DNA of 37,380 nt from a virus (IMGVR_UViG_3300045988_022742:1-37380), one strand, 5' to 3'; shown: positions 2,491-34,853, numbered from the stretch's first letter. Notes: generated by a model from the letters alone, not told the origin. A program made the numbers and translations.

Positions 2491-3252
2491 TTATGCTACT
2501 TCAATTAATGGGTCACAATTTACCCAAATTCCACCGATTTTTGCAAGGTTCTTTTGCACATTGACTTCATCAACACGAATTCTTGTAACATAGACAACGG
2601 CATTTGTTGTATGCAATACGTTATCATTATATCCATCAGAATAGCGAACTTTGTCAACCATACGAATTGGAAACCAACCACCTAATTGTGCAAGGTATGC
2701 GCATAAATCGCCATTGATTTGTTTCAATCCTTGATTGCCAATCTTCATTTGTACGGATGTTACGTAGCTTCCTGCGTGCAAGATTTGGTCAATTGCTTCT
2801 ACAGGTTGTGGAATGCTTGGTTTAACTGCTCCTGTGTTTGCGAAACATTTAGGTCTAAACGCAGTATCAAATGTTGCATAATAAGGTAATTTAATTAAAT
2901 TGAATGCTCCACCTTTTCCACCTTGGTTTTGACCTAAGAACCATCCTTGCTTTCCGTCAATATCAGAATCAAAGATTGCGATATGTGAGTATGGAGTCCA
3001 TCCTGCTACTTCTTTAAATACCGCAATGTCTCCCGGTTGCATGATTGAGACTTCATTACAATAGTTCAAGATACCATTTGTTTTTCGATTGTTCCAAATG
3101 TCCTTAACAAAGCTACTTGTTGTGCAATGGATAGCTTGATAGCCTAAATCAATCATGTACTTTGCGAATCCGTCCCAACATTGAGCACCATAGTATCCGT
3201 CAATGTCGAAAGCTTTGCCTAATACGGCTTTTTTGAAATTTTGATAATTTAT
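2491..3252 (-). CDS. Endolysin, N-terminal CHAP peptidase plus C-terminal SH3b-like wall-binding domain (253 aa from ATA at 3252)
   Basis: The catalytic motif GAQCWD and the later SHIAIF His motif fit a CHAP domain. The Cys lies upstream of the first ATG (3156). The frame is open from 3267 with no ATG/GTG/TTG. ATA lies 8 nt after AAGGAGGA. Confidence 0.8.
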   Translation of the reverse strand: MNYQNFKKAVLGKAFDIDGYYGAQCWDGFAKYMIDLGYQAIHCTTSSFVKDIWNNRKTNGILNYCNEVSIMQPGDIAVFKEVAGWTPYSHIAIFDSDIDGKQGWFLGQNQGGKGGAFNLIKLPYYATFDTAFRPKCFANTGAVKPSIPQPVEAIDQILHAGSYVTSVQMKIGNQGLKQINGDLCAYLAQLGGWFPIRMVDKVRYSDGYNDNVLHTTNAVVYVTRIRVDEVNVQKNLAKIGGIWVNCDPLIEVA

Positions 3253-3276
3253 TAAAAAAATCCTCCTTTATGTACC

Positions 3277-3294
3277 AATTATAGCACATAAAAG
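3277..3294 (-). repeat. 18-bp direct repeat copy 2 (candidate extended -10 promoter TGCTATAAT ahead of the endolysin)
   Basis: Identical to 2410-2427. Confidence 0.9.
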
Positions 3295-3304
3295 AGGTTT
3301 TTTA

Positions 3305-3742
3305 TCACTGATATACTGAGAACATTTCTCTTAATTTATCTCTTACCATTTCTCTTTCTTCTTGAAAGTCGCTAGACGTTTTCATTTCTTCTAAGATTCC
3401 ATACATAGCACTAAGAAAAGCTTCTAACTCACGAATAGATGTTCGTTTATCAATTTCATTGTTATCTTTTCGATATTCTTTTTTTGCTTCTATGTATTTT
3501 CTAAAATGAGAATTCATTAATGCGATATTATCATCAATTTCCGTTTCTTCAATATTTGTATCATTTGTTTTTAATGCGTTTATAGCAGTTCTTCCATCAC
3601 TCATAGCCAATATTGTATCAATGTCTTTGATATTGTCTAAAGCTTGACTCATAACTCTAAAGTCTAAATCATTGTATCCTTTTTCTAGTCCTCTCATTGC
3701 TTCTGTTAAGAGGTCTAGATTCCTTTTTCTAACCTCTTGCAT
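3305..3742 (-). CDS. Hypothetical helical/acidic 145-aa protein (cargo operon gene 5)
   Basis: ORF track. SD AGGTG lies 4 nt before the ATG. Confidence 0.7.
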   Translation of the reverse strand: MQEVRKRNLDLLTEAMRGLEKGYNDLDFRVMSQALDNIKDIDTILAMSDGRTAINALKTNDTNIEETEIDDNIALMNSHFRKYIEAKKEYRKDNNEIDKRTSIRELEAFLSAMYGILEEMKTSSDFQEEREMVRDKLREMFSVYQ

Positions 3743-3749
3743 GATACAC

Positions 3750-4169
3750 CTACGCTAATTTCTTAATGATGATATTTGCATTCTGAACAGATAAATCTAA
3801 GCCACTGTTATTTCCTAATGTAATTGTGTAAGAAGCTCCACAAGGTACTTGAATCAATGTAGCTCCACTAACATTTCCATATGCACTTGCAGTAGCTACA
3901 TTATATAAAGATTCTGTTCCTCCTACTGCTTCTCCATTCTGTTCTAATTCTAAAGAAGCTACTCCTACTGTTGCGCTTGTAATATCTGCCGTATATTCTA
4001 CCTCATAGATTCCTTGTTTTGTTAACGTAAATAATCCACTTCCTACATCATGAGCAAGCCAACCTTTACATGCACATTGGCAAGATTTTGTTCTTACTCT
4101 ATCCGTTGGAAATAATACATTTTGTCCGTTTGCTACTGTCTGTACTGCCGTTGCTATACTATTAATCAT
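3750..4169 (-). CDS. BclA C-terminal-domain-like (C1q/TNF-like beta-sandwich) protein without collagen repeats
   Basis: From memory, the layout parallels the B. anthracis BclA CTD, including the C-terminal ...ANIIIKKLA versus ...ASIIIEKVA. SD is TAGGAGGAAAAG. Confidence 0.55.
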   Translation of the reverse strand: MINSIATAVQTVANGQNVLFPTDRVRTKSCQCACKGWLAHDVGSGLFTLTKQGIYEVEYTADITSATVGVASLELEQNGEAVGGTESLYNVATASAYGNVSGATLIQVPCGASYTITLGNNSGLDLSVQNANIIIKKLA

Positions 4170-4254
4170 TTTCTTTTCCTCCTATATAAAATAAATGGGT
4201 AGCCTTTCGACTACCCTATAATCCAAAGGCTATTATTGCCTAATCTCTTTCGAG

Positions 4255-5627: not shown

Positions 5628-5891
5628 ATTCTTGTCTAGATACATTTCTTTTTCACTGCTTTTTCTTGGTGGTAAAATTGCGCTATATTTCTCTACTTCA
5701 TCATACTTGTTCTTAATCCTTTTAATGATTCTATTTACGCTAGAAACACTCATATTTAATCTGTCGGCTTGTTCTCTAACTGTCCATCCGTATATTCTAG
5801 TTCTTAGAATCATTTCTTCATCTTTAGTTAATAAAGCTAGATTAATAAACTCTTCTAAAATAATCTTATTCCAAGGTACTTGATTCGTCAT
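5625..5891 (-). CDS. Small sigma-70 region-4/LuxR-type HTH protein (88 aa)
   Basis: EEMILRTRIYGWTVREQADRLNMSVSSVNRIIKRIKNKY resembles a region-4 HTH. The gene overlaps the holin 3' end by 26 nt. Confidence 0.55.
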   Translation of the reverse strand: MTNQVPWNKIILEEFINLALLTKDEEMILRTRIYGWTVREQADRLNMSVSSVNRIIKRIKNKYDEVEKYSAILPPRKSSEKEMYLDKN

Positions 5892-6366
5892 TGTCTTCGT
5901 TAACGATTTTATCCGCTACTTCCAAACCTTTAGTTAATACACTAGGCACGCTATATCCACATTGCACAAGGTTCTCAATAATGCTACGCACTTCATTAAT
6001 ACATAAAGAAGCCAATACAAACCAACCTAATAATGTGGTTACATGGAAATCAATCCCTAGCATTTTTCCAATCTCAACCAAGAATGCACTGAATGTGAAC
6101 GCAACTACAATCATAATCCAATAGCCTAGCTTTTTAAGGACTCCAATCCATCCTTTATTGCTATTGATTTTGTGATTAATCGCCGACTTCATGCACCCTG
6201 TAATATAATCCACGACGTTCATAAATAAGAAGAACGCAAATAAATACCAATGCTCACCTAATACGTATGTTAATACGGCAACGGCTACACCACCAATTGC
6301 ATTCATCTTGTGTAGAAAATACATACTTCTTGTTATTTGTTTAAATCCTCCATTTTTCTTTTCTAT
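5866..6366 (-). CDS. Holin, phage_holin_4 (LL-H/TcdE-like) family (166 aa from ATA at 6366)
   Basis: Motifs VDYITG and NEVRSIIENL...GYSVP with several TM segments. The track's GTG (6375) overlaps the SD itself. ATA lies 8 nt after AAGGAG. Confidence 0.75.
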   Translation of the reverse strand: MEKKNGGFKQITRSMYFLHKMNAIGGVAVAVLTYVLGEHWYLFAFFLFMNVVDYITGCMKSAINHKINSNKGWIGVLKKLGYWIMIVVAFTFSAFLVEIGKMLGIDFHVTTLLGWFVLASLCINEVRSIIENLVQCGYSVPSVLTKGLEVADKIVNEDNDESSTLE

Positions 6367-7393: not shown

Positions 7394-8266
7394 CTATAAA
7401 CCTAAATACCTTTCATTGTAGTAAACTGTGCAAGCTAGATTTGTATCTCCATTGTCTGCCGTATATCCTATGATATTCTCACCTAACTGAATCGTCATAT
7501 CGTTGAATGATGATGTTCTGTCAACTTTACCGATACAATTCACACCGTTCTTTTTGATTGATATAGGTTCAGAAACTAAATCAATTTCTAATACATCGCC
7601 ATTGTGTAGCGTATCTAATACACGAATATATTTATCCTTGTTAAATAGTTTCGGATTCGTTACCTCTCCAAACGCTTCAATAACGGCTCTGCAATATGTT
7701 TCTGTATCACCTTGATTGTCAATATAGATTTCTCTAGCGAATGTAAATGTTCCAAAGTTTACACCTGTCTCCGGTATTTCAAAGTTGAACGCTAAACCTT
7801 CACCAATTTCTGCGATATTCCTTGCAAAATCATCAAATGAAAGCAATAAAGGTTGTGTGCATAGAATCGTAAAGTTAAGCTCTAAATCTTTGTAGATGTT
7901 AACTGTAGGCAAGCTATACGCATATAAATGACCTCTACAATATTTCTTTTCTCCCATGTACTCAACTATCACATCAAATAAATGAGAATATTGGAAGAAG
8001 CGCCGTAGCTTCTCCCTTTCTTCTCTTTTTTCTTCTAGCGAACCTTTGAAGGTAGCTTTCACGCTTCTTTCTTTCGTTGGAATACGTGAACCGATTAATC
8101 TAGCACCATTTCCAAATGCATTGTCTTGAGTTGTGTATGAAGGTGCTACATAATCAAATCCATCTAAACCACTACTTGAAGGAATCCTCCATCTTTTTTG
8201 GTTGTCAATTTCAAATTCTTTACCATCATCCCTACGGACGATAACTCTTACCTTATTGATATCTAT
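7394..8266 (-). CDS. Distal tail protein Dit (phage tail family), 290 aa from ATA at 8266
   Basis: A 68-codon in-frame extension upstream of the track's GTG (8062) has no canonical start. ATA lies 7 nt after GGAGGTG and overlaps the TMP stop codon (AATAG). Confidence 0.75.
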   Translation of the reverse strand: MDINKVRVIVRRDDGKEFEIDNQKRWRIPSSSGLDGFDYVAPSYTTQDNAFGNGARLIGSRIPTKERSVKATFKGSLEEKREEREKLRRFFQYSHLFDVIVEYMGEKKYCRGHLYAYSLPTVNIYKDLELNFTILCTQPLLLSFDDFARNIAEIGEGLAFNFEIPETGVNFGTFTFAREIYIDNQGDTETYCRAVIEAFGEVTNPKLFNKDKYIRVLDTLHNGDVLEIDLVSEPISIKKNGVNCIGKVDRTSSFNDMTIQLGENIIGYTADNGDTNLACTVYYNERYLGL

Positions 8267-10842
8267 TGGACTACACCTCCATATCCATATCTTGCTTGCA
8301 TACGTAACATTCTAGCGATTTCATCCGGACTTTGTGCTTTATTGTAGAAGTTGATAGTCTGTCCATTGTTATTTGTCGTTACGCTTGGCATGATTTGAGC
8401 CATATCTTTAGCTACGGCACGAATCCACGCTTTATTTCTTTCTAAAGGTACAACGGCTTCTGCTCCATTACCTTCTAGTAAACCAATTTGCCCACGCTTC
8501 AATACACCACCACGCTCTAGTCTTGGAATCCTTCCAATGTGTACACCGGGAATCTTATTGATGATACCGATTGCACCGTTAATACCACCGATAACACCAT
8601 TTACCATTCCTTTTACACTTCCAACTAATGAACTAACTGCTCCTTCAATTCCGCCAAATACACCACTTACAAATCCTTTTAAACCGCTCCATGCATTTTG
8701 TATGCCTTGTAGAACATTTGAAATTTTATTCCCTACATTATCCATTACACCTTGAACTTTAGACCAAATGCCATTAAATACATCAGAAACCGTAGATTTG
8801 ATATTATTGAAATATTTATTGATATTATCAACAACACCTTTCACTTTGTCTCCAACTCTATTCATTGTATCTTGAATCTTACTCCAAATATTGTTTATGA
8901 TGTCCGAAACCGTCTTAAATAAATTGCTTACGAATCCAATAATAGCAGTAACTACTTCGCTAACCTTGCTCCAAATATTTTGAGCAACCGTTAATATTAC
9001 AGACCAAATATTCGCTACAATTGTAGCTACAATTTGAACAATAGGCATGATAAATCCTAGTATTGTCGCAATCGCAGTCCCAACATACGTTACAACCATA
9101 TTTATAAATGAAATGATTCCACTTACTACACTTCCAACAACTTGAAGGATAGATGTTATTACAGGAATCATGCTAACTACCGTTTGAATAATCATCTTAA
9201 TAATTGCTAGAATCGGTGGACCTACTACACTAAGAATCTTTTGAGCTTGGTTAACAACATTTTGAATTGCACTGCCAATCTTGCCTATAATTTCTTTTGC
9301 GATAGGTTCAAGTGCAACTTTCATTTCGTCAATCGCTTTTCTAACTTCATCAAAAGCAGGAGCTAACACCTCTGAAACTTGACTTGTCAATTCTGTAATT
9401 CCACTTGTATCAATCTTGCTTAATACATTTGAAATTACATCACCAACTTTAGCAAATCCTTGTTGAATACCTTGTATAGCTACTGTAATCAATCCAATGA
9501 TACCTGCAAGAATAGGAGTAATAAGTTCGCCTATTGGAGTAAATGAATCAAGAAATGTACGCCCTAAGCCACTTAAAGCGTTCTTTAAGCCACCATTTGC
9601 AATTTCTTTAACTTTATCCATTGCTCCTTCTACATCTTTATATTTATTCCCTACTGTCGTTAAGGACTGAATGAATCCGGCGTTGAAATCTTCTCCCATT
9701 GTACCGAAAGCCGTTGCCGATTTATTCAACTTTTCTTGTTCATTTGTAGTCTTTGAAATATCTTCTACAATCGCATTTACAACATCTTTCTGAGTTGCTC
9801 TTCCTTCTTGCCAAGCTTTAAAAACATCTTGCGTCTTGGTATCAAAACTATCTAAAGCTCCTTCAATAGTTCCATCAACTAACCTTGTGGTAACTTCGTT
9901 GATTGCGTCATTTACTTTATCAAGGTTATAAGCTCCACCATCTAATCCATTCTGCATTAATTGGAAGTATTCTTCTGCCGAATATCCTGCTTGCTTGAAT
10001 TTACCGGAGTATTCTGAAATGTTGTCGCCTAACTCATCTGATTTGTTTAAACCATTCTGAGCACCTGTAGCCATAAGGTCAAAAGCTTCTTTAGAACTAA
10101 TTCCGAACTGCTTCATTAATTGTTGAGCACCTCTTAATGTTTCGTTCTCGTCCATTCCGAATGTGTCTCTTAATGTCAATAAATCCTCAGTAACATCCTT
10201 TAAATCAACATCACTTATGCCTTGCATTTGTTGCTTGACACGTGCCATCATATCGGCAACATCTGAAACATCTTCACCGAAATTGTTTGACCAAACATCA
10301 CGAGCAATGTTTTTAAATTTGCTCATTTCATTGCTTGAAGCACCTGTTTGAGCTTGAAATTTAGCCATAGCGTCATCTAATTCAGTAGCTTGATTTACAC
10401 CTGTCTTAATTGCTAATGCCATTCCACCGATAGCTCCTGCTACGGCAGTAACACCAACAACACCTCCTACGCCTAATCCTGTTAAGGTTTCAGTGATTGT
10501 AGTTGCTTCCGGACTAATATTCTGAATCTTTCCTAATAGTCCATCAAATCCACCTTGAATTGACTCTAAGGCACTGTTACCCACTTGCTTAAATACATCA
10601 AATTTAGAACCTGTTTCTTGCGTTTCTGTCTGTGTATTCTTTTGCTCTTCGTTTAAATCTTTAAGTTTATCTTTGATTTTTGGTGGTGCTTTTGAACCAT
10701 CAGAACCTAGCTTGTCGATTGCTTTTGAAGTTTCTTTGATAGCATTTGTAGTTCCACTTGTGACTTCATGAACGGATTTCATTCCATTCTCTAGACCACT
10801 TGTATCAATCTTTGTATCAAACTTTAATGTTCCGTCTGATAT
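8263..10842 (-). CDS. Tape measure protein (859 aa from ATA at 10842; 839 aa if the ATG at 10782 is used)
   Basis: Size, position, TM-rich centre and IWSK repeat motifs. ATA directly follows an in-frame TGA and lies 8 nt after GGAGGTGG. The ATG at 10782 lacks an SD. Confidence 0.8.
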   Translation of the reverse strand: MSDGTLKFDTKIDTSGLENGMKSVHEVTSGTTNAIKETSKAIDKLGSDGSKAPPKIKDKLKDLNEEQKNTQTETQETGSKFDVFKQVGNSALESIQGGFDGLLGKIQNISPEATTITETLTGLGVGGVVGVTAVAGAIGGMALAIKTGVNQATELDDAMAKFQAQTGASSNEMSKFKNIARDVWSNNFGEDVSDVADMMARVKQQMQGISDVDLKDVTEDLLTLRDTFGMDENETLRGAQQLMKQFGISSKEAFDLMATGAQNGLNKSDELGDNISEYSGKFKQAGYSAEEYFQLMQNGLDGGAYNLDKVNDAINEVTTRLVDGTIEGALDSFDTKTQDVFKAWQEGRATQKDVVNAIVEDISKTTNEQEKLNKSATAFGTMGEDFNAGFIQSLTTVGNKYKDVEGAMDKVKEIANGGLKNALSGLGRTFLDSFTPIGELITPILAGIIGLITVAIQGIQQGFAKVGDVISNVLSKIDTSGITELTSQVSEVLAPAFDEVRKAIDEMKVALEPIAKEIIGKIGSAIQNVVNQAQKILSVVGPPILAIIKMIIQTVVSMIPVITSILQVVGSVVSGIISFINMVVTYVGTAIATILGFIMPIVQIVATIVANIWSVILTVAQNIWSKVSEVVTAIIGFVSNLFKTVSDIINNIWSKIQDTMNRVGDKVKGVVDNINKYFNNIKSTVSDVFNGIWSKVQGVMDNVGNKISNVLQGIQNAWSGLKGFVSGVFGGIEGAVSSLVGSVKGMVNGVIGGINGAIGIINKIPGVHIGRIPRLERGGVLKRGQIGLLEGNGAEAVVPLERNKAWIRAVAKDMAQIMPSVTTNNNGQTINFYNKAQSPDEIARMLRMQARYGYGGVVQ

Positions 10843-11803: not shown

Positions 11804-12310
11804 TTATACTTCTGATGTACCTTCTGTGAAGGTTACTGTTCCATCTGCTACCTTTGCAACGCCGACACGAATGTCGCTTGCAAAGTTAATATTGAAGTTG
11901 ATTTTTGAATCGACACCGCTTAATGTATCGAAAATCAATTTAGCGTCAACTTCCCACGCTTTATAGCCTTTAGTTTTGTCTCCGTCAAACATAAATACAA
12001 GTAAAGCTTTTGTATTTACTTCTTCGTTGTTTGGTACGGATTTCATCATTTGTTCGTAAATGTATTCAAAATCATCTTCGCCTTTAATCATTGTTAAATC
12101 TTGCGAAATCTGAGGTGAATAACTCTTTAATGATTCTGTTGGGTTCTTATCTGCGATAAAGTCATACGTTTCAGTTTCACTGTTAAACGAAATATCTAAA
12201 GTTGTAGACTTTTTAATTCGCTTGTAACCTGTTCCCATTTCTAAGAACAATCCAATCATATACTTCTTGACTGTCTGTCCTGTATTTACTTCAGTTCCTT
12301 GAGTTGCTAT
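11804..12310 (-). CDS. Major tail protein (168 aa from ATA at 12310)
   Basis: Position and size. ATA lies 8 nt after AAGGAG and overlaps the upstream TAA (TAATA). The ATG at 12259 has only a weak AAGAAG. Confidence 0.65.
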   Translation of the reverse strand: MATQGTEVNTGQTVKKYMIGLFLEMGTGYKRIKKSTTLDISFNSETETYDFIADKNPTESLKSYSPQISQDLTMIKGEDDFEYIYEQMMKSVPNNEEVNTKALLVFMFDGDKTKGYKAWEVDAKLIFDTLSGVDSKINFNINFASDIRVGVAKVADGTVTFTEGTSEV

Positions 12311-12729
12311 TAATTAAGCTCCTTTCTGTATTTAATTTGAATAGTCAACGCATATACTGCTTGATTATCCTCATTTGTATATAGATATAAACCACTTGAA
12401 ACGGAAACATCCTCGCAATATCTGTTTCCGTCTAGTTGTGGCAATTCTCCGTTTAAATTCTTTTCATCAATCCAATTTTCTAATTCTTCTAGAAAAACAT
12501 TGTTATCTTGTCTTTCTGATTCAATTTGTGTATTCCTACGTGCTAGAAACGTGTAGTATTCTGTACGCATTTGAGAGCCATCAATGTATGTATCTACAAT
12601 TGCATTAGGTTCTTTATACAATGCATAAGAGATAGCTTGTTGTGCTAAAACATCCGTTTCAATACGTTCATCTATCTGTATATTTCCATATCCATATAGC
12701 CATTGAATCAACGCTTTTGATACTGTCAT
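12310..12729 (-). CDS. Tail completion/terminator-position protein
   Basis: ORF track. SD is TAGGAGGTAGTGA. Assigned by synteny. Confidence 0.55.
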   Translation of the reverse strand: MTVSKALIQWLYGYGNIQIDERIETDVLAQQAISYALYKEPNAIVDTYIDGSQMRTEYYTFLARRNTQIESERQDNNVFLEELENWIDEKNLNGELPQLDGNRYCEDVSVSSGLYLYTNEDNQAVYALTIQIKYRKELN

Positions 12730-13082
12730 TCACTACCTCCTATCATTTGTTGTGCTTTCTTTAAGATTGCTTCTGTTCCACCATTTCGCATAGCTTTTTT
12801 AAACCAATGGTCTGTTTTACCACCAACGAAATGAGCACCCTCTTTGTTGTAATACCAACGTCTAGCATAAGGTGCACTTGGTCCACCTTGCTTTACTAAT
12901 CCACTACCGATTTGTGTTAATCGTGTAGCCGAGTTAATCAATGCTCCTGTATCTCTAGGCGTATAGGGGGACATAAGCCTAATGACTTCAGAATCAATCA
13001 TCTGTTGAACTCGTCCACGTTCTTCAAGTCCTCTTGATTGTTTGATTTTGGGGATTGATTCAACATCAAGTTTGACTTTCAT
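12726..13082 (-). CDS. HK97 gp10-family head-tail protein (start ATG 13082, or ATA 13088)
   Basis: The motif SPYTPRDTGALINS is typical of the gp10 family. The long track N-terminus overlaps the previous gene. Confidence 0.6.
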   Translation of the reverse strand: MKVKLDVESIPKIKQSRGLEERGRVQQMIDSEVIRLMSPYTPRDTGALINSATRLTQIGSGLVKQGGPSAPYARRWYYNKEGAHFVGGKTDHWFKKAMRNGGTEAILKKAQQMIGGSE

Positions 13083-13084
13083 TC

Positions 13085-13504
13085 CTATTGACCAACAACC
13101 TCCCAATGCTTCAACATATCGACATTCGTACAATCTGTTACGCTTTGAACGGTTGTCCATTTGTATTTCTTTTTTGCTTCGTTGATTGATTTAATACTAG
13201 ATAAGTCTTCTTTTACTTCTCCAAAGAATACAAAATCTGTCTTATCTGTATTTAATGTGAAGTGCTTTTGTTTCTCATCATTTGAAAGCTTTGCATATAC
13301 GTAAGGTTCAACATATCCCTCACGATATAGAATGGTAATATTTGTGGATGTGGCTATGCTCAGAATATTACCATTTGCAGTTCTAACAGTTGATTGTCTC
13401 CACATACATTTATCAAGTATAGAAGCTTGAAATCTATCTTCTCTTGTTAATGTGTCATAGTAGTGATTTACAAGTGTAATTGAATCCTCAAAGAATCCTG
13501 TCAT
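13085..13504 (-). CDS. Head closure/head-tail adaptor-position protein
   Basis: The ATG at 13504 overlaps the upstream TGA (ATGA). Confidence 0.55.
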   Translation of the reverse strand: MTGFFEDSITLVNHYYDTLTREDRFQASILDKCMWRQSTVRTANGNILSIATSTNITILYREGYVEPYVYAKLSNDEKQKHFTLNTDKTDFVFFGEVKEDLSSIKSINEAKKKYKWTTVQSVTDCTNVDMLKHWEVVGQ

Positions 13505-13867: not shown

Positions 13868-14017
13868 CTACTTTTTCTTTTTTTGTTGAGGTTTAGCTTC
13901 CTCTTTTTCTTCTGTAGGTTCTTCTTTTACTTCTTCATCAACTGTAGGTTCTTCACCTTTTGGTTGTTCAACCTCTTTAGTGATAGAAGGATAACCCCAT
14001 CCGATTTCCACTGCCAT
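13868..14017 (-). CDS. Small acidic 49-aa protein with a Lys tail (MAVEIGWGYPSITKE...QQKKKK)
   Basis: Hand-translated. TAATG overlap with the capsid stop codon. Confidence 0.45.
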   Translation of the reverse strand: MAVEIGWGYPSITKEVEQPKGEEPTVDEEVKEEPTEEKEEAKPQQKKKK

Positions 14018-14886
14018 TACTTCGCACTAGCAGATAAGTAAATTCCTGCTACCTTATTTTCGTATACATCTACGATTCCATATTTACGATATTTCAATAC
14101 ATCTGAATCTGATTCGATGTTATTGCTTGCAGGAATCACATTTGAAACAGTGTGTTTATCCCATTTCATTACGGCAGGTTTGTGAACAATTAAGAAGTTG
14201 ATTGCGTGTCCATCCTCTGCCTTTTCGTATCCGCCCTCTAACTCTGTATCTTTTCCACTCAACAATTTAATTTTTGTATAGAATCGTGTTGAAGGTACAG
14301 GAACAATTTTTGCAAATCCTTGTAAAGCTTCACGTGATTTGTATGTATCTAATGCTTTAACGCTATTTAATAATGTTGGTGTTGAATATAAGATACGTTG
14401 TTCGCTAGGAACTTCATCCTCATCCATTTTAGTAACGGCTTTTAATAATGCACTCAAGAACTCTTCTGCCCCTGTATAATCTTCTGCAACTGTTGTGATT
14501 CCTGTTGTGCCGGAAATCTTAGCGAATGTGTAAGCGTCTGCTTCCGGTGCTACCTTTGTACGCATAAGTTCCGCTCCTGCCATACCGAACGCAATGTTCA
14601 TTGATTCTGCGTTATCTTGTGTATCAACTGAGATTTTAGTTCCTCGGTCATAGTCGAATGTAGCAGTTTTCCATTCTAACTTAACTGAGTTACCTGTATA
14701 ACCACTGTTTCTATCGTAGTTTCCTAAACCTTTAACAGAAATTTGTGGATAGATGATTTCTTTTGCATTTGCTCCTGCTCGTACCATTGTAGCGTCTGCA
14801 TTTAAATCACCTGTAACTGAAGCTAACTTATATACCTCATCCAAATTTGAGACATACGTTTTAGCTAATGCAATTTCATTTGGTAT
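14017..14886 (-). CDS. Major capsid protein (289 aa from ATA at 14886)
   Basis: Position after the GP20 scaffold. ATA lies 8 nt after AAGGAGGA. The track's TTG (14844) has no SD, and the frame opens only two codons above the ATA. Confidence 0.8.
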   Translation of the reverse strand: MPNEIALAKTYVSNLDEVYKLASVTGDLNADATMVRAGANAKEIIYPQISVKGLGNYDRNSGYTGNSVKLEWKTATFDYDRGTKISVDTQDNAESMNIAFGMAGAELMRTKVAPEADAYTFAKISGTTGITTVAEDYTGAEEFLSALLKAVTKMDEDEVPSEQRILYSTPTLLNSVKALDTYKSREALQGFAKIVPVPSTRFYTKIKLLSGKDTELEGGYEKAEDGHAINFLIVHKPAVMKWDKHTVSNVIPASNNIESDSDVLKYRKYGIVDVYENKVAGIYLSASAK

Positions 14887-18188: not shown

Positions 18189-18959
18189 TTATTTAACACA
18201 ATACTTCCAATCTGCTAAGATTGTGTTTTCGTTCTCATCTACTACTTGTGTACTAGCGTCTACTAGCAATGGAGTGTAGAAATGATTGTTTAACATCATG
18301 AATTCTAGTTCTGTAATTCTATTTGCAAGTTTACCTGCCGTATCTCCATCTAGAATATCTTTAATTGTTGCGAACCATTCATTCCAAGCATTTCGATTGT
18401 TTTGCATTGCTTCTTCGTTTAGTTCTTTTGTTTCTTTAATTAATTCTTGAACTTGAGTAAATAAGTCCATTGATGTAACGCCTTGAATTGCTCCACGTAC
18501 TACGCCACATCTATTTGAATCAAGCCTTGTATCTGTAATATCTGAACCTTTTACCTCACTTGCGTTGCCTGCTACTGTTACAGTAGCTAACACTAAATCA
18601 TAAACAGAATCACTACGTTGAATTCCGTTGCTAATCTCATCAACAACTAAAGTGATGTTTCTATATGCGTCATTATCATTCAATCTAAGAATAATATTGT
18701 AGTTCTTTGTGTTACTTGATTTCTCTACTGTGATAGTTTCATCATCTTGTTGCCAATAGAACGCTCCATTGATATTCGCTCGTCCTGCTTTCACAATTAG
18801 TGTTAAGCCTTGAGCCTTCTCAACTCTTAAATGGTCTGAGCTAGAATCATCTAAGAACACGCCATTTGTAAAGTAGCTTGAGAATAATCTCCTAAAAGCG
18901 TCATATAATACTAATCTATCGCCATTTCTTGAGACGAATGGAAAATATGTAGTTGCTAT
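18189..18959 (-). CDS. Tail fibre/structural protein, XkdV-like N-terminal type (256 aa from ATA at 18959)
   Basis: The 33-codon in-frame extension FPFVSRNGDRLVLYDAFRRLFSSYFTNGVF matches the conserved N-terminus of this family (F.S..GDR.Y.a.df..yf..fi.nGVF). It has no canonical start. ATA overlaps the portal TAG. Confidence 0.7.
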   Translation of the reverse strand: MATTYFPFVSRNGDRLVLYDAFRRLFSSYFTNGVFLDDSSSDHLRVEKAQGLTLIVKAGRANINGAFYWQQDDETITVEKSSNTKNYNIILRLNDNDAYRNITLVVDEISNGIQRSDSVYDLVLATVTVAGNASEVKGSDITDTRLDSNRCGVVRGAIQGVTSMDLFTQVQELIKETKELNEEAMQNNRNAWNEWFATIKDILDGDTAGKLANRITELEFMMLNNHFYTPLLVDASTQVVDENENTILADWKYCVK

Positions 18960-20362: not shown

Positions 20363-21700
20363 TTACCTCCTTAAATCTATATATCCACTATGGGTTATAA
20401 ATGTATAGCAGAACGAATCCCAATCATCATTGATATTGTTTACGTTCTCATCTTTTGGGATATCTTTCTTTTCATCCCATACTAATTCGCTCAATGCGTT
20501 TATTAAGTTCTTACAATGTTCTTCTATCTTTAACCTACCTGTAACAAGTAAGCTATCAACCGTTATAGGGCGGTCTGTAAGCTCATTCTTCTTTACCGGT
20601 GCAATTATACTTCCGTCTAGCCCTTCTGCATAAAAATAAGCTCTAAGCGTGTTTATCAACGTATTAGAAGCACTGTCCGGAAATATCCATTCTACATATC
20701 CATAACATTCAACACAACGCTTATAGAATCTTACAAACGCTTTACAGAACTTTGTTGCGTCTATTGAGTTTGACTTTACCATATCTCCCTCATCAAGCGC
20801 CCACATATAATCCCAATCATTTGTAAACCCTGTTAAGTGCCATGAATACTTTGAACCATTGTCTCCAAAGTCAACGCCTATGATTAAATGACTGAACCTT
20901 TTTCCTTCTTCCTTCATCTTTTCTTTTAGACTCTGATATTTGAATAGGTAAGGTTTGCAGTCATTTGCAAAATAAGGAAAGACTAGACCTTCGGCAACCA
21001 TTCTTTCCCCTAAAATATCTCGCTTGTACCATACTGAATTCTTGTCATATTTGTTTTGGATTTCTTCGATTCTTTCTTGGCTCATTGTAGCATTGTCAAA
21101 GATGTTGAAGTGCTCATATCTGTACCAATCTAATCCCATGAATTTATCTATGTAATTCTTATAAATGTCTGCATTTGGGTTTGATGGGTTTAAATCCCAT
21201 AATGTAAATGGATGTACGCTTGCAATCTGTCTTGCCATTGCTACCTTAATAAAACTTGTTCTAGAATCATCACAATCGTAATGCTCATTTATTTCGGTCG
21301 CTATCCATCCACCATATGAGTTACCTAATATACTCTTATATGAATCGGACTTTCCACCACCTGTAAATATCACTATCTTTTCACCTGTCTTTGTTTGGAC
21401 AAATAATGCTTCGTTTGATTTGTATTTACCCCAACGACAACGCCCACGAAAGATATGCTCTAAGCCGAAACCATTGTAATCACCTATATTTAGTTTCGCA
21501 TTCGGTAAGCTTGACCCACTAGCTAAATGTATTTTATCTTCACATGTTTCTAAATACATTGAAAAGATTATGCAGTGGTCAATCGTTTTACCACTTCGTA
21601 CCGCTCCTTCTGCTACACTTTGTTTGTAATTTAGGGCGGTCTTAATATAGTTCTTATGCTTATCTGAAAATTTCCCCCAAGGAATCGTTCTAGTCATCAT
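20363..21700 (-). CDS. terL: Terminase large subunit (PBSX family)
   Basis: Walker-A-like AVRSGKT, size, and position before the portal gene. Confidence 0.85.
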   Translation of the reverse strand: MMTRTIPWGKFSDKHKNYIKTALNYKQSVAEGAVRSGKTIDHCIIFSMYLETCEDKIHLASGSSLPNAKLNIGDYNGFGLEHIFRGRCRWGKYKSNEALFVQTKTGEKIVIFTGGGKSDSYKSILGNSYGGWIATEINEHYDCDDSRTSFIKVAMARQIASVHPFTLWDLNPSNPNADIYKNYIDKFMGLDWYRYEHFNIFDNATMSQERIEEIQNKYDKNSVWYKRDILGERMVAEGLVFPYFANDCKPYLFKYQSLKEKMKEEGKRFSHLIIGVDFGDNGSKYSWHLTGFTNDWDYMWALDEGDMVKSNSIDATKFCKAFVRFYKRCVECYGYVEWIFPDSASNTLINTLRAYFYAEGLDGSIIAPVKKNELTDRPITVDSLLVTGRLKIEEHCKNLINALSELVWDEKKDIPKDENVNNINDDWDSFCYTFITHSGYIDLRR

Positions 21701-22062
21701 TTTAATAAATCTGCCAAAGGTGTTAAGTCCTCAATCTCATGTGTCATTGTTTGTTCAACCTTTTCGGACTGCCCAAGCATTTGTTTACCTAACCAAATAA
21801 GCATGGTCGTATTCCCTTTTGACGCTTTGTCAAATTGCATACGTCTTAAACTTCTTTTTGAGTGACTTATACCTTTTTTATATGTCTGACAAAACTTTCC
21901 ATTTCTTAATAATGTTCTTACCGAACATCCTAGAAAATCTGCAATTTCTTCTTGAGTACATCCAATAGAAGCAAGCTTTTCAACTGCTTCATAATCAATC
22001 TTTACTCTTGGACGTCCTCCTGCGTGTTTCTCTGCTATTTTAATACCCCCTATAACAATCAT
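21697..22062 (-). CDS. terS: Terminase small subunit (HTH). The start is either the ATG at 22062 (no SD) or the ATA at 22038 (7 nt after GGGGG).
   Basis: GGRPRVKIDYEAVEKLASIGCTQEEIADFLGCSVRT is a typical TerS HTH. ATGA overlap with terL. Confidence 0.75.
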   Translation of the reverse strand: MIVIGGIKIAEKHAGGRPRVKIDYEAVEKLASIGCTQEEIADFLGCSVRTLLRNGKFCQTYKKGISHSKRSLRRMQFDKASKGNTTMLIWLGKQMLGQSEKVEQTMTHEIEDLTPLADLLK

Positions 22063-25110: not shown

Positions 25111-25135
25111 AAAAGAACCGAGACAAACGCTCGGT
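25111..25135 (-). terminator. Rho-independent terminator ending the tRNA-like transcription unit
   Basis: - strand reads ACCGAG-CGTTTGT-CTCGGT followed by TCTTTT. Confidence 0.6.
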
Positions 25136-25215: not shown

Positions 25216-25291
25216 TGGTTGCAGGAGAAGGAATTGCACCGTTCGACCTCTAGCTAATAAGACTAGTGAGCTACTACTGCTCTATCCTGCT
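25216..25291 (-). tRNA. tRNA-like gene, anticodon UAU (decodes AUA), with initiator-tRNA-like acceptor and D-arm features. The T-stem is non-canonical.
   Basis: Hand-folded cloverleaf: AGCAGGA-UA-GAGC-AGUAGUA-GCUC-A-CUAGU-CUUAUUA-GCUAG-AGGUC-GAA(C)GG-UGCAAUU-CCUUC-UCCUGCA-A-CCA. The CCA end is encoded. Deviations: A1xA72 mismatch, no GG in the D-loop, U37, one bulged C in the T-stem. Confidence 0.55.
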
Positions 25292-25308: not shown

Positions 25309-25331
25309 AAAAAATGCTCACATTGTGAGCA
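25309..25331 (-). terminator. Rho-independent terminator overlapping the ArpU-like gene stop codon
   Basis: - strand reads TGCTCAC-AAT-GTGAGCA followed by TTTTTT. Confidence 0.6.
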
Positions 25332-25644
25332 CTTTCTTTAAGTTCTTATTTATTTTTCTTGGAATCTCTTCTCTTGCATAACCTACAATATTAGATGTCT
25401 TTTCTGCGCTGAATCCCTTTATATATCTATACTCAATCATTGTTCGAGTTGTATCATCAAGTTGGCTTAATTTATCTTTTACATAGTTCATTCTTCTTGC
25501 ATAATCCGCATGAGCTAAGAATAGCTCGGCTTTTAAAGGATAAATTGCTTCATCCCTTTGTAGCTCTGCTATCTTTTGCTCATAATATGTGTATGATTGG
25601 CATTCACACAAGAAGTGTCTCTTAATATCTTCATACGTGCTCAT
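25318..25644 (-). CDS. ArpU/RinA-like late transcriptional regulator (sigma region-4-like HTH)
   Basis: The C-terminal MIEYRYIKGFSAEKTSNIVGYAREEIPRKINKNLKKV is HTH-like. It sits at the early/late boundary. Confidence 0.55.
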   Translation of the reverse strand: MSTYEDIKRHFLCECQSYTYYEQKIAELQRDEAIYPLKAELFLAHADYARRMNYVKDKLSQLDDTTRTMIEYRYIKGFSAEKTSNIVGYAREEIPRKINKNLKKVLTM

Positions 25645-25844
25645 GAACTGTATACCTTATACAATCTATCCTTTAATTCGCCAACTTCACTTCTTAATTT
25701 CTTGATTTCTTTAGCTTGAGTATGAATTGTTGCGTTTCTTTCTTTTAAAGTCTGCTCCAATTCAATATTCTTCCTTCCTAGTCTATTGTTTTTAGAAATT
25801 AACTCTTTAATCCTTTCTTCATAATTCATTTCTATTAAAACCAC
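25641..25844 (-). CDS. Coiled-coil 67-aa protein
   Basis: ORF track. ATGA coupling to the next gene. Confidence 0.6.
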   Translation of the reverse strand: MVLIEMNYEERIKELISKNNRLGRKNIELEQTLKERNATIHTQAKEIKKLRSEVGELKDRLYKVYSS

Positions 25845-30804: not shown

Positions 30805-31560
30805 CTACGCTCTTAATATTTCTTTCCTTACTCGTTCCATTTCTTTCTGTACATCTGCATACGATTGATTGCTTTCTTGTGCATAGAATTTAGAATCAAG
30901 TTTTACAGGATTGTTCTTATTTCTTTTCATCCATTCATCATGTACCCACTTTTGTAGTACTAATGAATGGTTCTTGTATTTCTTTCCGGATGTTTCAATA
31001 TATTCATCTAATATCTTTATATGCTCATCTAATGAATCACCATATAAATCTAATAGGTGTGTGTGTTCTTTATCTGTTAAAAGAACGTGTTTGAATTCTC
31101 CGTATTTGTGTTTACTTTGTTTATTAGTATTTTTGTTATTAGTATTTGGTTTATTAGTATATTTATAAGTACCTACATTTTGTAAACCTACATCTTGTAA
31201 CCCTACATTATGTAGACCTACATTTTGTATGTCTTGCTCAAGAGGTACGTTTTGTGGGTCTTGAGGTGTTTCACTGAAAATGTATTGATATTCAATTTTA
31301 CTTCTTCCGTCTTTATTTGGATAAAGCTTTTCTATTCTTAAATACCCATTTTCTTTTAATTCAGATAATGCTCCATTTACTGCTCTTTCACCATCTTTTA
31401 CAATTCCAACTAATCCATTTACTGTATAATGCCAATCATCCGGTAAACTAAGAACAACACTTAATAAGCCTATTGCTTTAAGTGATAAGCGTTTATCTTT
31501 TAAATGTGTATTGCTCATCACTGTATAGTTTCTATTCTTAATAACTCTAATTACTGCTAT
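30805..31560 (-). CDS. Replication initiator/replisome organiser with an N-terminal winged-helix domain (251 aa from ATA at 31560)
   Basis: YTVMSNTHLKDKRLSLKAIGLLSVVLSLPDDWHY...LSELKENGYL is the typical Rep N-terminal domain. ATA lies 8 nt after GGAGG. The TTG and GTG alternatives sit on or inside the SD. Confidence 0.7.
   Translation of the reverse strand: MAVIRVIKNRNYTVMSNTHLKDKRLSLKAIGLLSVVLSLPDDWHYTVNGLVGIVKDGERAVNGALSELKENGYLRIEKLYPNKDGRSKIEYQYIFSETPQDPQNVPLEQDIQNVGLHNVGLQDVGLQNVGTYKYTNKPNTNNKNTNKQSKHKYGEFKHVLLTDKEHTHLLDLYGDSLDEHIKILDEYIETSGKKYKNHSLVLQKWVHDEWMKRNKNNPVKLDSKFYAQESNQSYADVQKEMERVRKEILRA
31121..31231. repeat. Probable origin of replication inside the rep gene: 3 x 15-bp AT-rich repeats (ttattagtat core) then 4 x 15-bp iterons CCTACATYTTGTARN
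   Basis: Read directly. AT-rich repeat copies start at 31121, 31136 and 31151. Iterons occupy 31172-31231. Confidence 0.7.
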
Positions 31561-31909
31561 TTTGCTCACCTCCAAGCACTACTACTTGCTTTAGGATTTC
31601 ATCAATAATTTTGCCGATATATTCTAGATAGCAATTTATCTCAATATCGTTATAAGGCGCTTCAAGTTTGTACAATGCTTTATATATTGCTTTAACTCCT
31701 ACTCTATATAGTCCATCTTTTGTATAGCTATTACATCCATTTAGCATATACGTAAATTCTTCGGTAATATCATGAACTGTACACGCTTCATTAAATACAT
31801 CCTTTGAATTTGTATCTCCTATGCTTCTTTCTGCAATTTGATAAAACAAATTAAATTCATCAAAGTAAACTTGCTTTGCTACGTTTACTGCCATTTCTTG
31901 CTCTCTCAT
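31547..31909 (-). CDS. Hypothetical protein
   Basis: ORF track. SD is GAGGTAGAAATC. Confidence 0.6.
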   Translation of the reverse strand: MREQEMAVNVAKQVYFDEFNLFYQIAERSIGDTNSKDVFNEACTVHDITEEFTYMLNGCNSYTKDGLYRVGVKAIYKALYKLEAPYNDIEINCYLEYIGKIIDEILKQVVVLGGEQNSSN

Positions 31910-32298
31910 ATGATTTCTACCTCTATCCTTGGATTCTCCTTATCTGTAAATACTGAATGATTCACTTGATTAATGTATTTTCTTGAATCATCCTCAAGTA
32001 TTCCTGTTCTAACTAATGAATCTTGAATGAATTTAGTTGCAAATGTTACGTTATCAACATCACGCCTTGAATTCGGTTCATACCAATTAATATTTAATTT
32101 GATAGGATAGTTTTTAACTTCGTAAACTTCGCCAAAGTTTACTGCCTGTAAGATATAAGCCATTACAAGACGCTCGTTCTTTTTCTTCATTTCTGCTCCT
32201 TTGTAACGATTTGCTCTGCAAGCATTAATATATTCATTCAATCCATCAAGCTTCCCTTTTATTACAAACTTTATTTTTCTCACCCTTGATTCCTTCAT
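31906..32298 (-). CDS. rusA: RusA-family Holliday junction resolvase (start uncertain: ATG 32298, GTG 32283 or ATA 32274)
   Basis: SRRDVDNVTFATKFIQDSLVRTGILEDDSRKYI matches the RusA RRDxDN...DD motif. Confidence 0.7.
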   Translation of the reverse strand: MKESRVRKIKFVIKGKLDGLNEYINACRANRYKGAEMKKKNERLVMAYILQAVNFGEVYEVKNYPIKLNINWYEPNSRRDVDNVTFATKFIQDSLVRTGILEDDSRKYINQVNHSVFTDKENPRIEVEII

Positions 32299-33045: not shown

Positions 33046-33303
33046 CTATAGATAATTCTTATGAAATATCTTCATAAACTCATTTCTTGTGTGTACTTCT
33101 TCAAATGCCCGTTGGCATTCCTTTTTAAGCTTCATGTCTAATTTGTGATTGAAATGTACTCCTTCACTGCTCATGTTGTGATGTCTAGCGCATAATCTTA
33201 CATAACACCCATGCTCAATTGATTTTTTTCGGTTTGCAGTACCAAAATATATTTCATGTGTATGTAAATTCAATGTTGAACCACATACATAGCATTTAGA
33301 CAT
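33046..33303 (-). CDS. Small Cys/His zinc-binding (HNH-like) protein
   Basis: CYVCG...HTHEI...LCARHHN...GVH pattern. Weak SD. Confidence 0.5.
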   Translation of the reverse strand: MSKCYVCGSTLNLHTHEIYFGTANRKKSIEHGCYVRLCARHHNMSSEGVHFNHKLDMKLKKECQRAFEEVHTRNEFMKIFHKNYL

Positions 33304-33341
33304 ATCACTTTGTAAGATTGACTTATCTCTTTTCTTTATTC

Positions 33342-33977
33342 CTATGCCCTCGCAATCTTTTCTTTATATCCTTTAATTAATGTGCCATAAGCTTTAATTG
33401 TGGATTGCAACTGAGGTTCGTTTAGCTTCTGTAAATCTTGTGATTCACAATTTGAATGTTTAAGAATCCAACTTGCATATTGTTCTCTAAAGTCAATTCC
33501 TAATTCATTCATTTCAGTTTGAAGTGAAATAAATTTCTTAACAGTTTCTTCTTTTGGTTCAAGTTCTTTTTTCTTATCTTCCTCCGGTAAATCTTCACCG
33601 GCATAAATGTATAAACCTAAACCATGACGAGCAATTGCTTTTGTTAAACTTCTTTGAATTGCTTTATTAACATCAAATGATGTTAGCTTATCAAGCGCGA
33701 TTGATTTGTTCTTGTAATCCATTACAGGCAATTCTTCAATGTGTTCTAATCCATCAATAATTACACTTGTTTTAACCCAAGCAGTACGACCATCTGTAAA
33801 GTAATTAATAGGTCCGTATTCTGATTCACGTTCGTAAATCTTATATTGAGCATTTGGATATTTCTTTTTAACTTCTCCCCATGCCCATGCCCATGACAAA
33901 TAACTCAGATTATTCTTTTTTTCTACTTTGTCATTCACATTGATTTCATTCAGTGTTTGAAATACTGATTTCTCCAT
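33342..33977 (-). CDS. Sak/DUF1071 (RAD52-like) single-strand annealing protein
   Basis: LSYLSWAWAWGEVKKKYPNAQYKIYE and GLGLYIYAGEDLP are hallmark Sak motifs. Confidence 0.75.
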   Translation of the reverse strand: MEKSVFQTLNEINVNDKVEKKNNLSYLSWAWAWGEVKKKYPNAQYKIYERESEYGPINYFTDGRTAWVKTSVIIDGLEHIEELPVMDYKNKSIALDKLTSFDVNKAIQRSLTKAIARHGLGLYIYAGEDLPEEDKKKELEPKEETVKKFISLQTEMNELGIDFREQYASWILKHSNCESQDLQKLNEPQLQSTIKAYGTLIKGYKEKIARA

Positions 33978-34075
33978 CTTCCATTTCTCCTTTTAATTTG
34001 TTATAATTTAAGTGTTCTTATTTTAAGAACGTCATTTCTTGTGTGTGCGTGCTTTGTCGAGTGCGCACCTCTTTT

Positions 34076-34306
34076 TTATAGAAATAACATTGCATACGAT
34101 TTACCTAAACAAGCTATTGAAACTAACAGAATCACGATTGTTGCGAATAACATAATGTTAATTCCTGTTGTGATTCTTTTTTGATACCTTTGTTCTCTAA
34201 TAAGTTCTTTTTCTTCTTTGCTTAAATGTATTCGTTTTGGATTAAATGGATAAATGCTCAACTCCATTTCATCCTCCTGTATTGCATTCATTCTTATATC
34301 TTGCAT
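34076..34306 (-). CDS. Small protein with a C-terminal TM segment
   Basis: ORF track. SD is AAAGGAGTTAG. Confidence 0.6.
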   Translation of the reverse strand: MQDIRMNAIQEDEMELSIYPFNPKRIHLSKEEKELIREQRYQKRITTGINIMLFATIVILLVSIACLGKSYAMLFL

Positions 34307-34308
34307 AA

Positions 34309-34569
34309 CTAACTCCTTTTAAATGATTTTCTAGCTTCGGGACAACACTTCAAGAAATATTCTGTTGGAATTACATTCTGATTAACATTTCTATATACAA
34401 ATGTATCTTCCCAAGCAGTACCTGTTTCTTTTTTATAGAACTCTTTAACTGCTTTCATAATCTTGCTTGATTGGTGTCTTTGGTAGTCTTTTGAATGTTC
34501 GTTCATATCAAAAACATTTACCAAATCGTCTTTATTTAAATATGATTTGTAATTAATAATCACTTTCAT
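34309..34569 (-). CDS. Hypothetical protein
   Basis: ORF track. Confidence 0.6.
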   Translation of the reverse strand: MKVIINYKSYLNKDDLVNVFDMNEHSKDYQRHQSSKIMKAVKEFYKKETGTAWEDTFVYRNVNQNVIPTEYFLKCCPEARKSFKRS

Positions 34570-34732
34570 ACACCTCCATTCTAGATTCGCAAGTGTTGAT
34601 TTGATTTACTTCTTGCAAATCCCTAACATTCAATTGATTCGCAATTTCTTTTGCTTCTGCACTGTTATGTGCTTCAACCTCGAACGTAACATTTGCAGTT
34701 ACGTCGAAGGTTACGAAATATGTTCTAGTCAT
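34553..34732 (-). CDS. Hypothetical 59-aa protein (start MTRTYFV)
   Basis: The ATG at 34732 lies 6 nt after GAGGTG. The track's ATG at 34756 has no SD. Confidence 0.6.
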   Translation of the reverse strand: MTRTYFVTFDVTANVTFEVEAHNSAEAKEIANQLNVRDLQEVNQINTCESRMEVYESDY

Positions 34733-34853
34733 GTTTCTCACCTCTTTTCGATTCATCTAAGATACAAGCGATATATCCTTGATGAAATTCTGAAAGCTCA
34801 TAGCCTTTCTTTTGTAGTTCGCCTAAGGCTTCAAAAATTCTCTTGTCTAGTAT
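34725..34853 (-). CDS. Hypothetical 42-aa protein apparently initiated at ATA
   Basis: It fills an otherwise empty 172-nt gap. ATA lies 5 nt after GGAGGTG. The stop codon overlaps the next gene's start (ATGACTAG). No canonical start exists in this frame. Confidence 0.4.
   Translation of the reverse strand: MLDKRIFEALGELQKKGYELSEFHQGYIACILDESKRGEKHD

Follow-up and report, generated by a model that had tools for sequence, protein, structure and literature searches.

The window analysed here, the whole 37,380-nt viral contig IMGVR_UViG_3300045988_022742 (1-37380), is a phage genome in which ATA starts 15 of the 64 genes (23%), including those for the major capsid, major tail and portal proteins. 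From the sequence evidence, ATA is nearly certain to be the start codon of these genes. The phage also encodes a tRNA with the anticodon UAU in an initiator-like body, and we consider it probable, on comparative grounds, that this anticodon-switched initiator tRNA reads AUA in the ribosomal P site.

When starts were scanned mechanically, the only start with a Shine-Dalgarno (SD) site in these ORFs was ATA, and the same scan gave the approximately 49 other genes ATG, GTG or TTG with ordinary SDs. Enrichment was assessed with triplets lying 5-10 nt downstream of a strong SD and opening at least 40 codons, of which there were 29 ATG, 17 ATA, 9 AAA, 6 GTG and 3 ATT. Expressed as the share of open triplets that stand behind an SD, ATA (9.9%) is as enriched as ATG (10.2%), with ATT at 0.8%; this count in the phage genome had been proposed in a first-pass annotation of the same DNA. 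The SD-antiSD duplex averages -13.2 kcal/mol at ATA starts versus -10.3 at canonical ones (p=0.001), and the ATG, GTG and TTG codons further downstream in the ATA genes have no SD sites. The twelve ATA starts listed by the first-pass annotation, together with two it had called weaker (13088 and 32274), lie where it placed them and have the SD motifs it described, and five of them indeed read ATA GCA. Its statement that no canonical start lies upstream in frame holds for most genes and fails for five: terS (ATG 22062), the 18175 gene (GTG 18199), the holin (GTG 6375), Rep (TTG 31575) and RusA (ATG 32298 and GTG 32283). These upstream codons either lack a usable SD or overlap the SD.

The residues gained by starting at ATA behave as conserved N-terminal sequence, as had been suggested, since Met1 of an orthologue or profile position 1-8 falls at the ATA. 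In the ATA-extended capsid, head protein, endolysin, major tail protein (MTP) and Rep, the matches to PHROG and Pfam profiles start within the first 2-10 residues, and the portal profile match starts at residue 22. Capsid homologues align from residue 1, with residues 3-288 matching positions 3-294 of phrog_422, and I1 of the endolysin encoded in the window shares an alignment column with M1 of four homologues. The catalytic Cys of the endolysin was correctly placed upstream of the first ATG (QCWD is residues 24-27, the ATG residue 33), and the gains of 68 residues for the distal tail protein Dit and 31 for the portal were reproduced. One identity has to be revised, as the protein at 18959, previously called a fibre, matches the head-protein family phrog_1220.

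Conservation was followed site by site (Table 1) in relatives that are 85-95% identical, taken from IMG/VR, ENA and Logan assemblies, some loci sharing one contig. AATA, meaning the ATA start plus a preceding A at position -1, was present in 371 of 385 site-by-locus observations, with variable spacers and second codons. The comparison with orthologues that the first-pass annotation had recommended did find ATG occasionally at the exact ATA position, in 6 of the 385 observations (holin 3, MTP 1, 18175 gene 2). Two further lineages with ATA starts have only ~50% protein identity: lineage 2 (L066, L083, L120, L150) and lineage 3 (L157, L161, L167, L180). The lineage-2 member L120, which is 72% identical to the window in the large terminase TerL, 59% in the portal and 52% in the capsid, has ATA starts in the orthologues of capsid, the 13088 gene, MTP, the tape measure protein (TMP), Dit, portal, terS and RusA, and keeps ATG in the scaffold, 13848 and 12729 orthologues. 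The tail chaperone and a sigma-like regulator start with ATG in the window and with ATA in L120. In L161, of lineage 3, terS, portal, the 13088 homologue, MTP and TMP start with ATA. This orthologue-by-orthologue agreement indicates that the assignment of ATA or ATG is gene-specific and old. A systematic base-call error, named in the first-pass annotation as something that would overturn its reading, is excluded because the same ATA recurs in independent assemblies and in diverged lineages. Taken with the SD enrichment and the N-terminus alignments, this conservation supports the earlier proposal that initiation at ATA would be systematic.

The tRNA that had been singled out as a likely partner of the ATA starts is real, and initiator-like rather than elongator-like. 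Its coordinates were right: Rfam RF00005 matches 25219-25291 with 48 bits (gathering score 29), and the span including CCA is 25216-25291. By segments it reads AGCAGGA UA GAGC AGUAGUA GCUC A CUAGU CUUAUUA GCUAG AGGUC GAA(C)GG UGCAAUU CCUUC UCCUGCA ACCA. In 28 contigs with flanks ~90% identical, the gene itself is 96-100% identical. Compensatory changes at 6 pairs support the cloverleaf across the three lineages, and 94% of cells are paired, a level reached by none of 500 shuffles. In the window the gene directly follows the sigma-like regulator gene, ahead of the late operon, and in lineages 2 and 3 terS follows it immediately.

An unpaired 1:72 together with G2:C71 and C3:G70 corresponds to the formylase determinants and EF-Tu antideterminant of bacterial initiators. 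Position 1:72 is unpaired in all six distinct sequences (A1xA72 in lineage 1, G1xA72 in lineages 2 and 3) and the neighbouring pairs covary; nucleotide 1 is not the C that forms C1xA72 in most bacterial initiators. Invariant in the three lineages are G2:C71, C3:G70, A11:U24, G12:C23, the loop CUUAUUA and A73-CCA, with D stems GAGC/GCUC or GAGC/GCUU. In a survey of 234 genomes, A11-T24 and G12-C23 completely separated fMet tRNAs from elongator Met and Ile(CAT) tRNAs, and G2, C3, G70, C71 and A72 were almost 100% conserved in initiators (PMC1635315). The anticodon stem, likewise invariant, carries A29:U41, G30:C40 and U31.G39. Against the 3GC consensus R29 G30 G31 .. Y39 C40 Y41, in which G30:C40 is essential (PMC5389676, PMC1635315), the middle pair G30:C40 is therefore present, and A29:U41 resembles the first pair of alpha-proteobacterial and mycoplasmal initiators. 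In E. coli, G30:C40 on its own is enough for an initiator to work, and initiators with au/GC/gu stems occur naturally (PMC5389676). The initiator used for comparison was that of E. coli, whose sequence was confirmed by 100% matches in 5,426 genomes. The marks of an elongator tRNAIle (a Watson-Crick pair at 1:72, Y11:R24 and a purine, t6A, at 37) are replaced here by an unpaired 1:72, A:U and U37. The anticodon is UAU in all copies, not the CAU of bacterial initiators, so that the molecule is best described, from its sequence, as an apparent initiator body with the anticodon CAU changed to UAU.

Position 37 is almost always a purine in tRNAs, and here U37 is invariant in all copies. The base preceding the start codon is A at 15 of 15 ATA starts versus 28 of 49 canonical starts (Fisher p=0.0012), against a background in which A precedes 39% of all ATA triplets. 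In lineage 2 the -1 base is A at ten and G at one of the 11 ATA starts, and in lineage 3 it is A in all five homology-supported starts. Position 37 of E. coli tRNAfMet has been shown experimentally to pair with mRNA position -1, and an A37U mutant favours complementary and G.U-wobble bases there, that is, A or G (PMC10018350). A four-base AAUA:UAUU pairing, with U37 opposite the A at -1, may thus form, and it would compensate for a codon-anticodon helix made up entirely of A and U.

ATA starts and tRNA(UAU) occur together in the three lineages. Among 80 diverse TerL-centred loci, the tRNA was found only in the lineage of the window and in lineage 2, and the same held for numerous SD-preceded ATA starts; the ~70 other TerL relatives have neither. 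With one automatic caller, loci with the tRNA gave 52 ATA starts in 164 genes and low-GC loci lacking it 12 in 171, three of these 12 lying on a lineage-1 contig that is truncated. Neither the tRNA nor ATA starts (0/23 and 0/17 genes) are present in two temperate phages with endolysins 68-69% identical to that of the window; to judge from these endolysins they probably have the same host range. A relaxed tRNA pattern matched mostly a protein-coding false-positive family, and also tRNA(UAU) genes in two unrelated phage contigs, both with the GAGC/GCUC D stem of the initiator type: L171 (IMGVR_UViG_3300035158_001055, tRNA 2346-2420; 66% G+C), with G1xA72 and G37, and L159 (IMGVR_UViG_3300045988_058182, tRNA 915-990; 29% G+C), with U1-A72 and A37. 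In the available DNA, neither of these tRNAs had convincing ATA starts nearby.

Table 1. Genes with ATA starts, the tRNA and neighbouring elements of the window, with the start codon found in relatives and in the other lineages.
Feature	Coordinates	Strand	Start and context	Close relatives	Lineages 2 and 3
42-aa ORF	34725..34853	-	ATA 34853, SD GGAGGTGA; no canonical start codon anywhere in ORF	AATA in 11/12	
97-aa ORF	33046..33339	-	Likely ATA 33339; additional to earlier list; least certain site	ATA in 7/7; -1 base A or T	
RusA-like resolvase (Pfam RusA)	31906..32274	-	ATA 32274	AATA in 22/22	ATA in lineage 2
Replication initiator/DnaD-like Rep	30805..31560	-	ATA 31560, SD GGAGGTGA; PHROG profiles align from residue 2-5	AATA in 7/7	
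Ambiguous ORF	25641..25835	-	ATA 25835 6 nt after AGGAGGTG; ATG 25829 two codons later		
Terminator-like GC hairpin + T run	25309..25331	-	Between sigma-like regulator gene (25318-25644) and tRNA		
tRNA, 76 nt, encoded CCA	25216..25291	-	Anticodon loop CUUAUUA: anticodon UAU, U37, A38		
Terminator-like hairpin + T run	25117..25135	-	Downstream of tRNA		
Small terminase terS	21697..22038	-	Probable ATA 22038; in-frame ATG 22062 without SD	AATA in 22/22	ATA in both
Portal	18956..20359	-	ATA 20359, SD AAGGAGGT	AATA in 28/28	ATA in both
Head protein phrog_1220	18189..18959	-	ATA 18959, overlaps portal stop codon (ATAG); profile match from residue 3	AATA in 27/27	
Fibre-like protein phrog_4492	17297..18175	-	ATA 18175	Only two alignable, both ATG at same codon	
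Major capsid protein	14017..14886	-	ATA 14886; no internal ATA codon	AATA in 43/43	ATA in lineage 2
Minor head/connector protein phrog_556	12726..13088	-	ATA 13088, overlaps upstream stop codon (ATAG)	AATA in 39/39; ATG two codons downstream not conserved	ATA in both
Putative MTP	11804..12310	-	ATA 12310	ATA in 33 (30 AATA rows, 3 gap-placement-artefact rows), AATG in 1	ATA in both
TMP (Pfam PhageMin_Tail)	8263..10842	-	ATA 10842	AATA in 29/29	Lineage-3 orthologue aligns from residue 1 at ATA
Dit	7394..8266	-	ATA 8266, overlaps TMP stop codon	AATA in 31/31, flanks variable	
Holin (Phage_holin_4_1)	5866..6366	-	ATA 6366	AATA in 26, AATG at same position in 3	
CHAP endolysin	2491..3252	-	ATA 3252	AATA in 21; one with TTG immediately upstream	

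Inside genes, ATA is the least used Ile codon (141 of 771, 18%) and is absent from the capsid, MTP, scaffold, endolysin and 18959 head-protein genes. This rarity, with the absence from these genes, makes the tRNA look unlike an elongator that supplies a codon. TerL (20363-21700, minus strand) is an exception to the avoidance, with ATA as 19 of its 35 Ile codons, which could be either a translational throttle or a sign of different ancestry. Residues aligned in homologues with these 19 codons are Ile in 51% of cases (60% for ATT), and Met is not among the six commonest; AUA in TerL thus keeps its meaning, which speaks against a reassignment.

We propose that the phage has two classes of start codon. 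Most genes would begin at AUG, a few at GUG or UUG, through the host initiator tRNA, and some 15 AUA genes (terS, portal, two head proteins, the fibre-like protein, capsid, MTP, TMP, Dit, holin, endolysin, Rep, RusA and two small ORFs) would begin through the phage tRNA, with strong SD sites positioning the 30S subunit at the AUA. Initiation factor 3 (IF3) checks codon-anticodon complementarity, not the codon itself, and it should accept this pair because UAU is fully complementary to AUA. Anticodon mutants of tRNAfMet are said to initiate at matching codons with the amino acid of the new anticodon (work attributed to Meinnel in 1999, Varshney and RajBhandary in 1990 and the Schulman laboratory in 1990-91). 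The tRNA most likely carries Ile, favoured because recognition would be driven by the anticodon; A35, U36, A38 and A73 fit isoleucyl-tRNA synthetase, and the other E. coli Ile identity pairs are absent. Charging with Met, through G2:C71, C3:G70 and A73, is possible; the main determinant of methionyl-tRNA synthetase is C34, and this tRNA has U34. Profile scans recognised no formyltransferase, aminoacyl-tRNA synthetase, IF-like or other translation-related protein among the phage genes. On balance we lean towards a wider reading, a natural orthogonal initiation system in which a second initiator tRNA (UAU, U37) and the start signal AAUA behind a strong SD, probably with formyl-Ile, would form a private channel for the timing or amount of capsid, tail and lysis proteins, independent of host tRNAfMet. 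Since the gene-specific assignment is conserved across lineages, the split is probably regulatory, and the position of the tRNA gene suggests that the output of the AUA genes for structure and lysis would be tied to the level of the phage tRNA. This regulatory purpose is the weakest part of the proposal.

Several observations weigh against initiation by the phage tRNA. The T arm in lineage 1 is odd, with one bulged base in the stem, the T loop UGCAAUU and G55 rather than U55, which is why ARAGORN reported no tRNA in the window; it calls the homologues in lineages 2 and 3 as tRNA(tat). The 3GC motif retains only one of its three canonical G:C pairs, and the third pair is a U.G reversed from G.U. 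The stronger SDs at ATA sites imply that the tRNA may not be strictly required, and S. aureus AUA starts with an extended SD reach 10-30% of AUG efficiency (bioRxiv 10.1101/2025.06.19.660503). The three lineages share ancestry, so that the joint presence of tRNA and ATA starts in them counts as few independent events. Rep, RusA and two small ORFs are early ATA genes, many essential late genes use ATG, and a switch for late genes alone is thus too simple. Finally, all support for tRNA-driven initiation is comparative and computational, and charging, formylation and use in the P site are inferred.

The main alternative is that host tRNAfMet reads the ATA starts near-cognately, helped by the strong SDs, the phage tRNA(UAU) being an ordinary elongator or a replacement of host tRNAIle2 for codon supply or escape from an anticodon nuclease. 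We think this unlikely, with some precedents in its favour. AUA initiation with host tRNAfMet occurs at infC, ccpN and citZ in Firmicutes, namely S. aureus and B. subtilis (bioRxiv 10.1101/2025.06.19.660503), and the significantly stronger SDs at our ATA sites agree with the extended SD of the infC/ccpN type. UAU is the normal means of reading AUA as Ile in a few bacteria (PMC1635315), and phage tRNAs serving as defence-resistant replacements are documented (PMC10264068). However, ATA starts in 23% of the genes, among them those of the most abundant virion proteins, are the opposite of rare attenuating regulators, and a tRNA with 1:72 unpaired in all three lineages, A11:U24, G12:C23 and no purine at 37 is unlike an elongator. 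Moreover, highly expressed late genes have no internal ATA, phages that probably share the host range and lack the tRNA have no ATA starts, and the invariant A at -1 matches U37.

The other alternatives fare worse. Mitochondria use AUA as Met and also as a start codon, and by analogy AUA might be Met throughout, with the tRNA as a general Met tRNA for AUA. This is most improbable, and a reassignment of AUA to Met was ruled out by the TerL homologue alignment, in which internal ATA aligns with Ile (51%) and Met does not reach the six commonest residues. It is equally hard to believe that the genes begin at the first downstream ATG, GTG or TTG and that the open frame upstream is non-coding. Prodigal-type public calls do use such starts (portal 436 aa, capsid 275 aa), yet these have no SD and would cost the CHAP catalytic Cys, 68 residues of Dit and N-termini matched by profiles, and in the 13088 gene the downstream ATG is not conserved whereas the ATA is. 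The chance that the true codon is ATG and that ATA arose through sequencing, assembly or base modification is practically nil. A possible DNA-modification module (ParB_N, TAGT glycosyltransferase, radical-SAM-like protein) could favour such an artefact, but the same ATA stands in more than 40 independent IMG/VR, ENA and Logan contigs, from different assemblers and studies, and in lineages at ~50% protein identity, and we rejected this explanation on that ground. In addition, AATG is not depleted genome-wide (425 occurrences in a k-mer analysis), and the complementary anticodon change in the tRNA could not be explained as an artefact.

Initiation by the phage tRNA has partial parallels in known systems. 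E. coli tRNAfMet engineered to carry CUA, GAU, GAC or AAC anticodons reportedly initiates at UAG, AUC, GUC and GUU (classical work of RajBhandary and Schulman). Like those anticodon-mutant initiators, the phage system would combine an initiator body, a changed anticodon and a matching non-AUG start behind an SD, and the starting amino acid is expected from the new anticodon. Unlike those laboratory constructs, it is natural, conserved in three lineages and attached to a defined gene set, and its tRNA has U37 with A at -1 and a reduced 3GC motif. To our knowledge, initiation by an initiator tRNA with a non-CAU anticodon is known only in engineered systems. Gut phages reportedly recode stop codons with phage-encoded suppressor tRNAs (a finding ascribed to Borges et al. 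in 2022, Nature Microbiology). Here, too, a tRNA of the phage would alter codon reading in phage genes, mostly late or lysis ones, and gene callers misannotate them; in all three lineages the phage has its own tRNA with an anticodon matching an unusually used codon, as expected of a code switch. In stop recoding, however, a stop codon is read in elongation, whereas here a sense codon would be used for initiation, and internal AUA keeps its meaning. Such recoding by suppressor tRNAs, acting in elongation, appears to be the nearest natural analogue.

The infC, ccpN and citZ starts share with ours an AUA behind an extended SD and evolutionary conservation, but they represent a handful of low-output regulatory genes per genome with no dedicated tRNA, in contrast to 23% of the genes and a cognate tRNA. 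As in the 37/-1 pairing of E. coli tRNAfMet (PMC10018350), the base 3′ of the anticodon complements the base 5′ of the start codon; the E. coli pairing is A37:U(-1) with a modest effect, while the predicted U37:A(-1) would be invariant at all ATA starts. The elongator tRNAIle(UAU) of Mycoplasma mobile (PMC1635315) has the same anticodon and reads AUA, but it replaces tRNAIle2/TilS, and the phage tRNA has initiator discriminators, not elongator ones. A natural tRNA of the initiator type whose anticodon differs from CAU was found neither for phages nor for any other source in full-text literature searches; these did yield engineered orthogonal initiator tRNAs, including i-tRNA(AAC) initiators described in preprints, and natural near-cognate AUA starts. 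Ours would be a natural private start-codon system with no earlier description in the searchable literature. If it is real, a mobile element is able to change, in the course of evolution, which codon serves as a start, start-codon recoding joins the stop-codon recoding of gut phages, and synthetic biology gains a ready-made orthogonal pair of initiator and start codon. It also opens to test the constraints that IF3, Fmt and the 3GC pairs place on initiator identity, and the natural use of quadruplet pairing between 37 and -1.

A practical consequence concerns annotation. Standard gene callers shorten or miss about a quarter of the genes in an abundant gut phage group (portal, capsid, Dit and endolysin among them), and because they miss ATA starts the database N-termini of these proteins are systematically wrong. 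In relatives (L060-L065; P0272, P0286) the ATA genes have been cut short to a portal of 436 aa, a capsid of 275 aa and an endolysin of 183 aa. The opposite error also occurs, in an endolysin call that runs upstream through the SD and begins MAYKGGFFL-INYQ.

The window is a siphovirus-type genome of 37.4 kb with ~33% G+C, and the minus strand carries almost all of its genes. Going down the coordinates, a block of early and replication genes (Sak-like annealing protein, NinB, RusA, DnaD-like Rep, SSB) is followed by the small sigma-like regulator gene (25318-25644) and the tRNA, then by DUF6275, ParB_N, a TET-associated glycosyltransferase and a radical-SAM-like protein, and finally by the late block of terS, TerL, portal, head genes, tail genes, holin and CHAP endolysin. 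Public data contain more than 4,000 homologues of TerL, and the best 120 listed are all 98-100% identical and all from human-gut assemblies, which places the window in a very abundant gut phage group. A host search with the tRNA pattern and the endolysin gave no match in bacterial genome contigs, and megablast of the window against a phage collection found no match and hence no host clue; the only named endolysin relatives are from Faecalibaculum rodentium, at 50% identity. One relative, L151 (ENA ERZ28570394 scaffold_130), is 77,546 nt long and others are 71-77 kb, about twice a genome of ~38.7 kb; such lengths probably reflect concatemers, assembled from a genome that is circular or terminally redundant, rather than prophages with host flanks.

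The ParB_N, TET-associated glycosyltransferase (PF20691; TAGT) and 435-aa radical-SAM-like genes between the tRNA and terS (22182-24826, minus strand) may form a DNA hypermodification module; lineage 2 lacks the cluster at this position and has the tRNA immediately before terS. Across the window (1-37380) short palindromic or restriction-type words are avoided to an extreme degree: CCAG/CTGG occurs 0 times versus ~30-36 expected, GGCC 0 versus 16, GATC 3 versus 112, CAGC and GCTG 2 each versus 77 and 38, and CGCG once versus 22. A 94-aa early protein (34929-35213, minus strand) matches the N-terminal domain of the anti-restriction factor ArdC (PF08401, E=5.5e-6). The genes between portal and minor capsid (16941-18959, minus strand) are mosaic among close relatives, as seen when the window is compared with L060-L065 and L151-L154, some encoding 229+99+109+202+81+294 aa and others 244+686+45+283 aa. 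The fibre-like gene, with its ATA start in the window and ATG in two relatives, belongs to this region.

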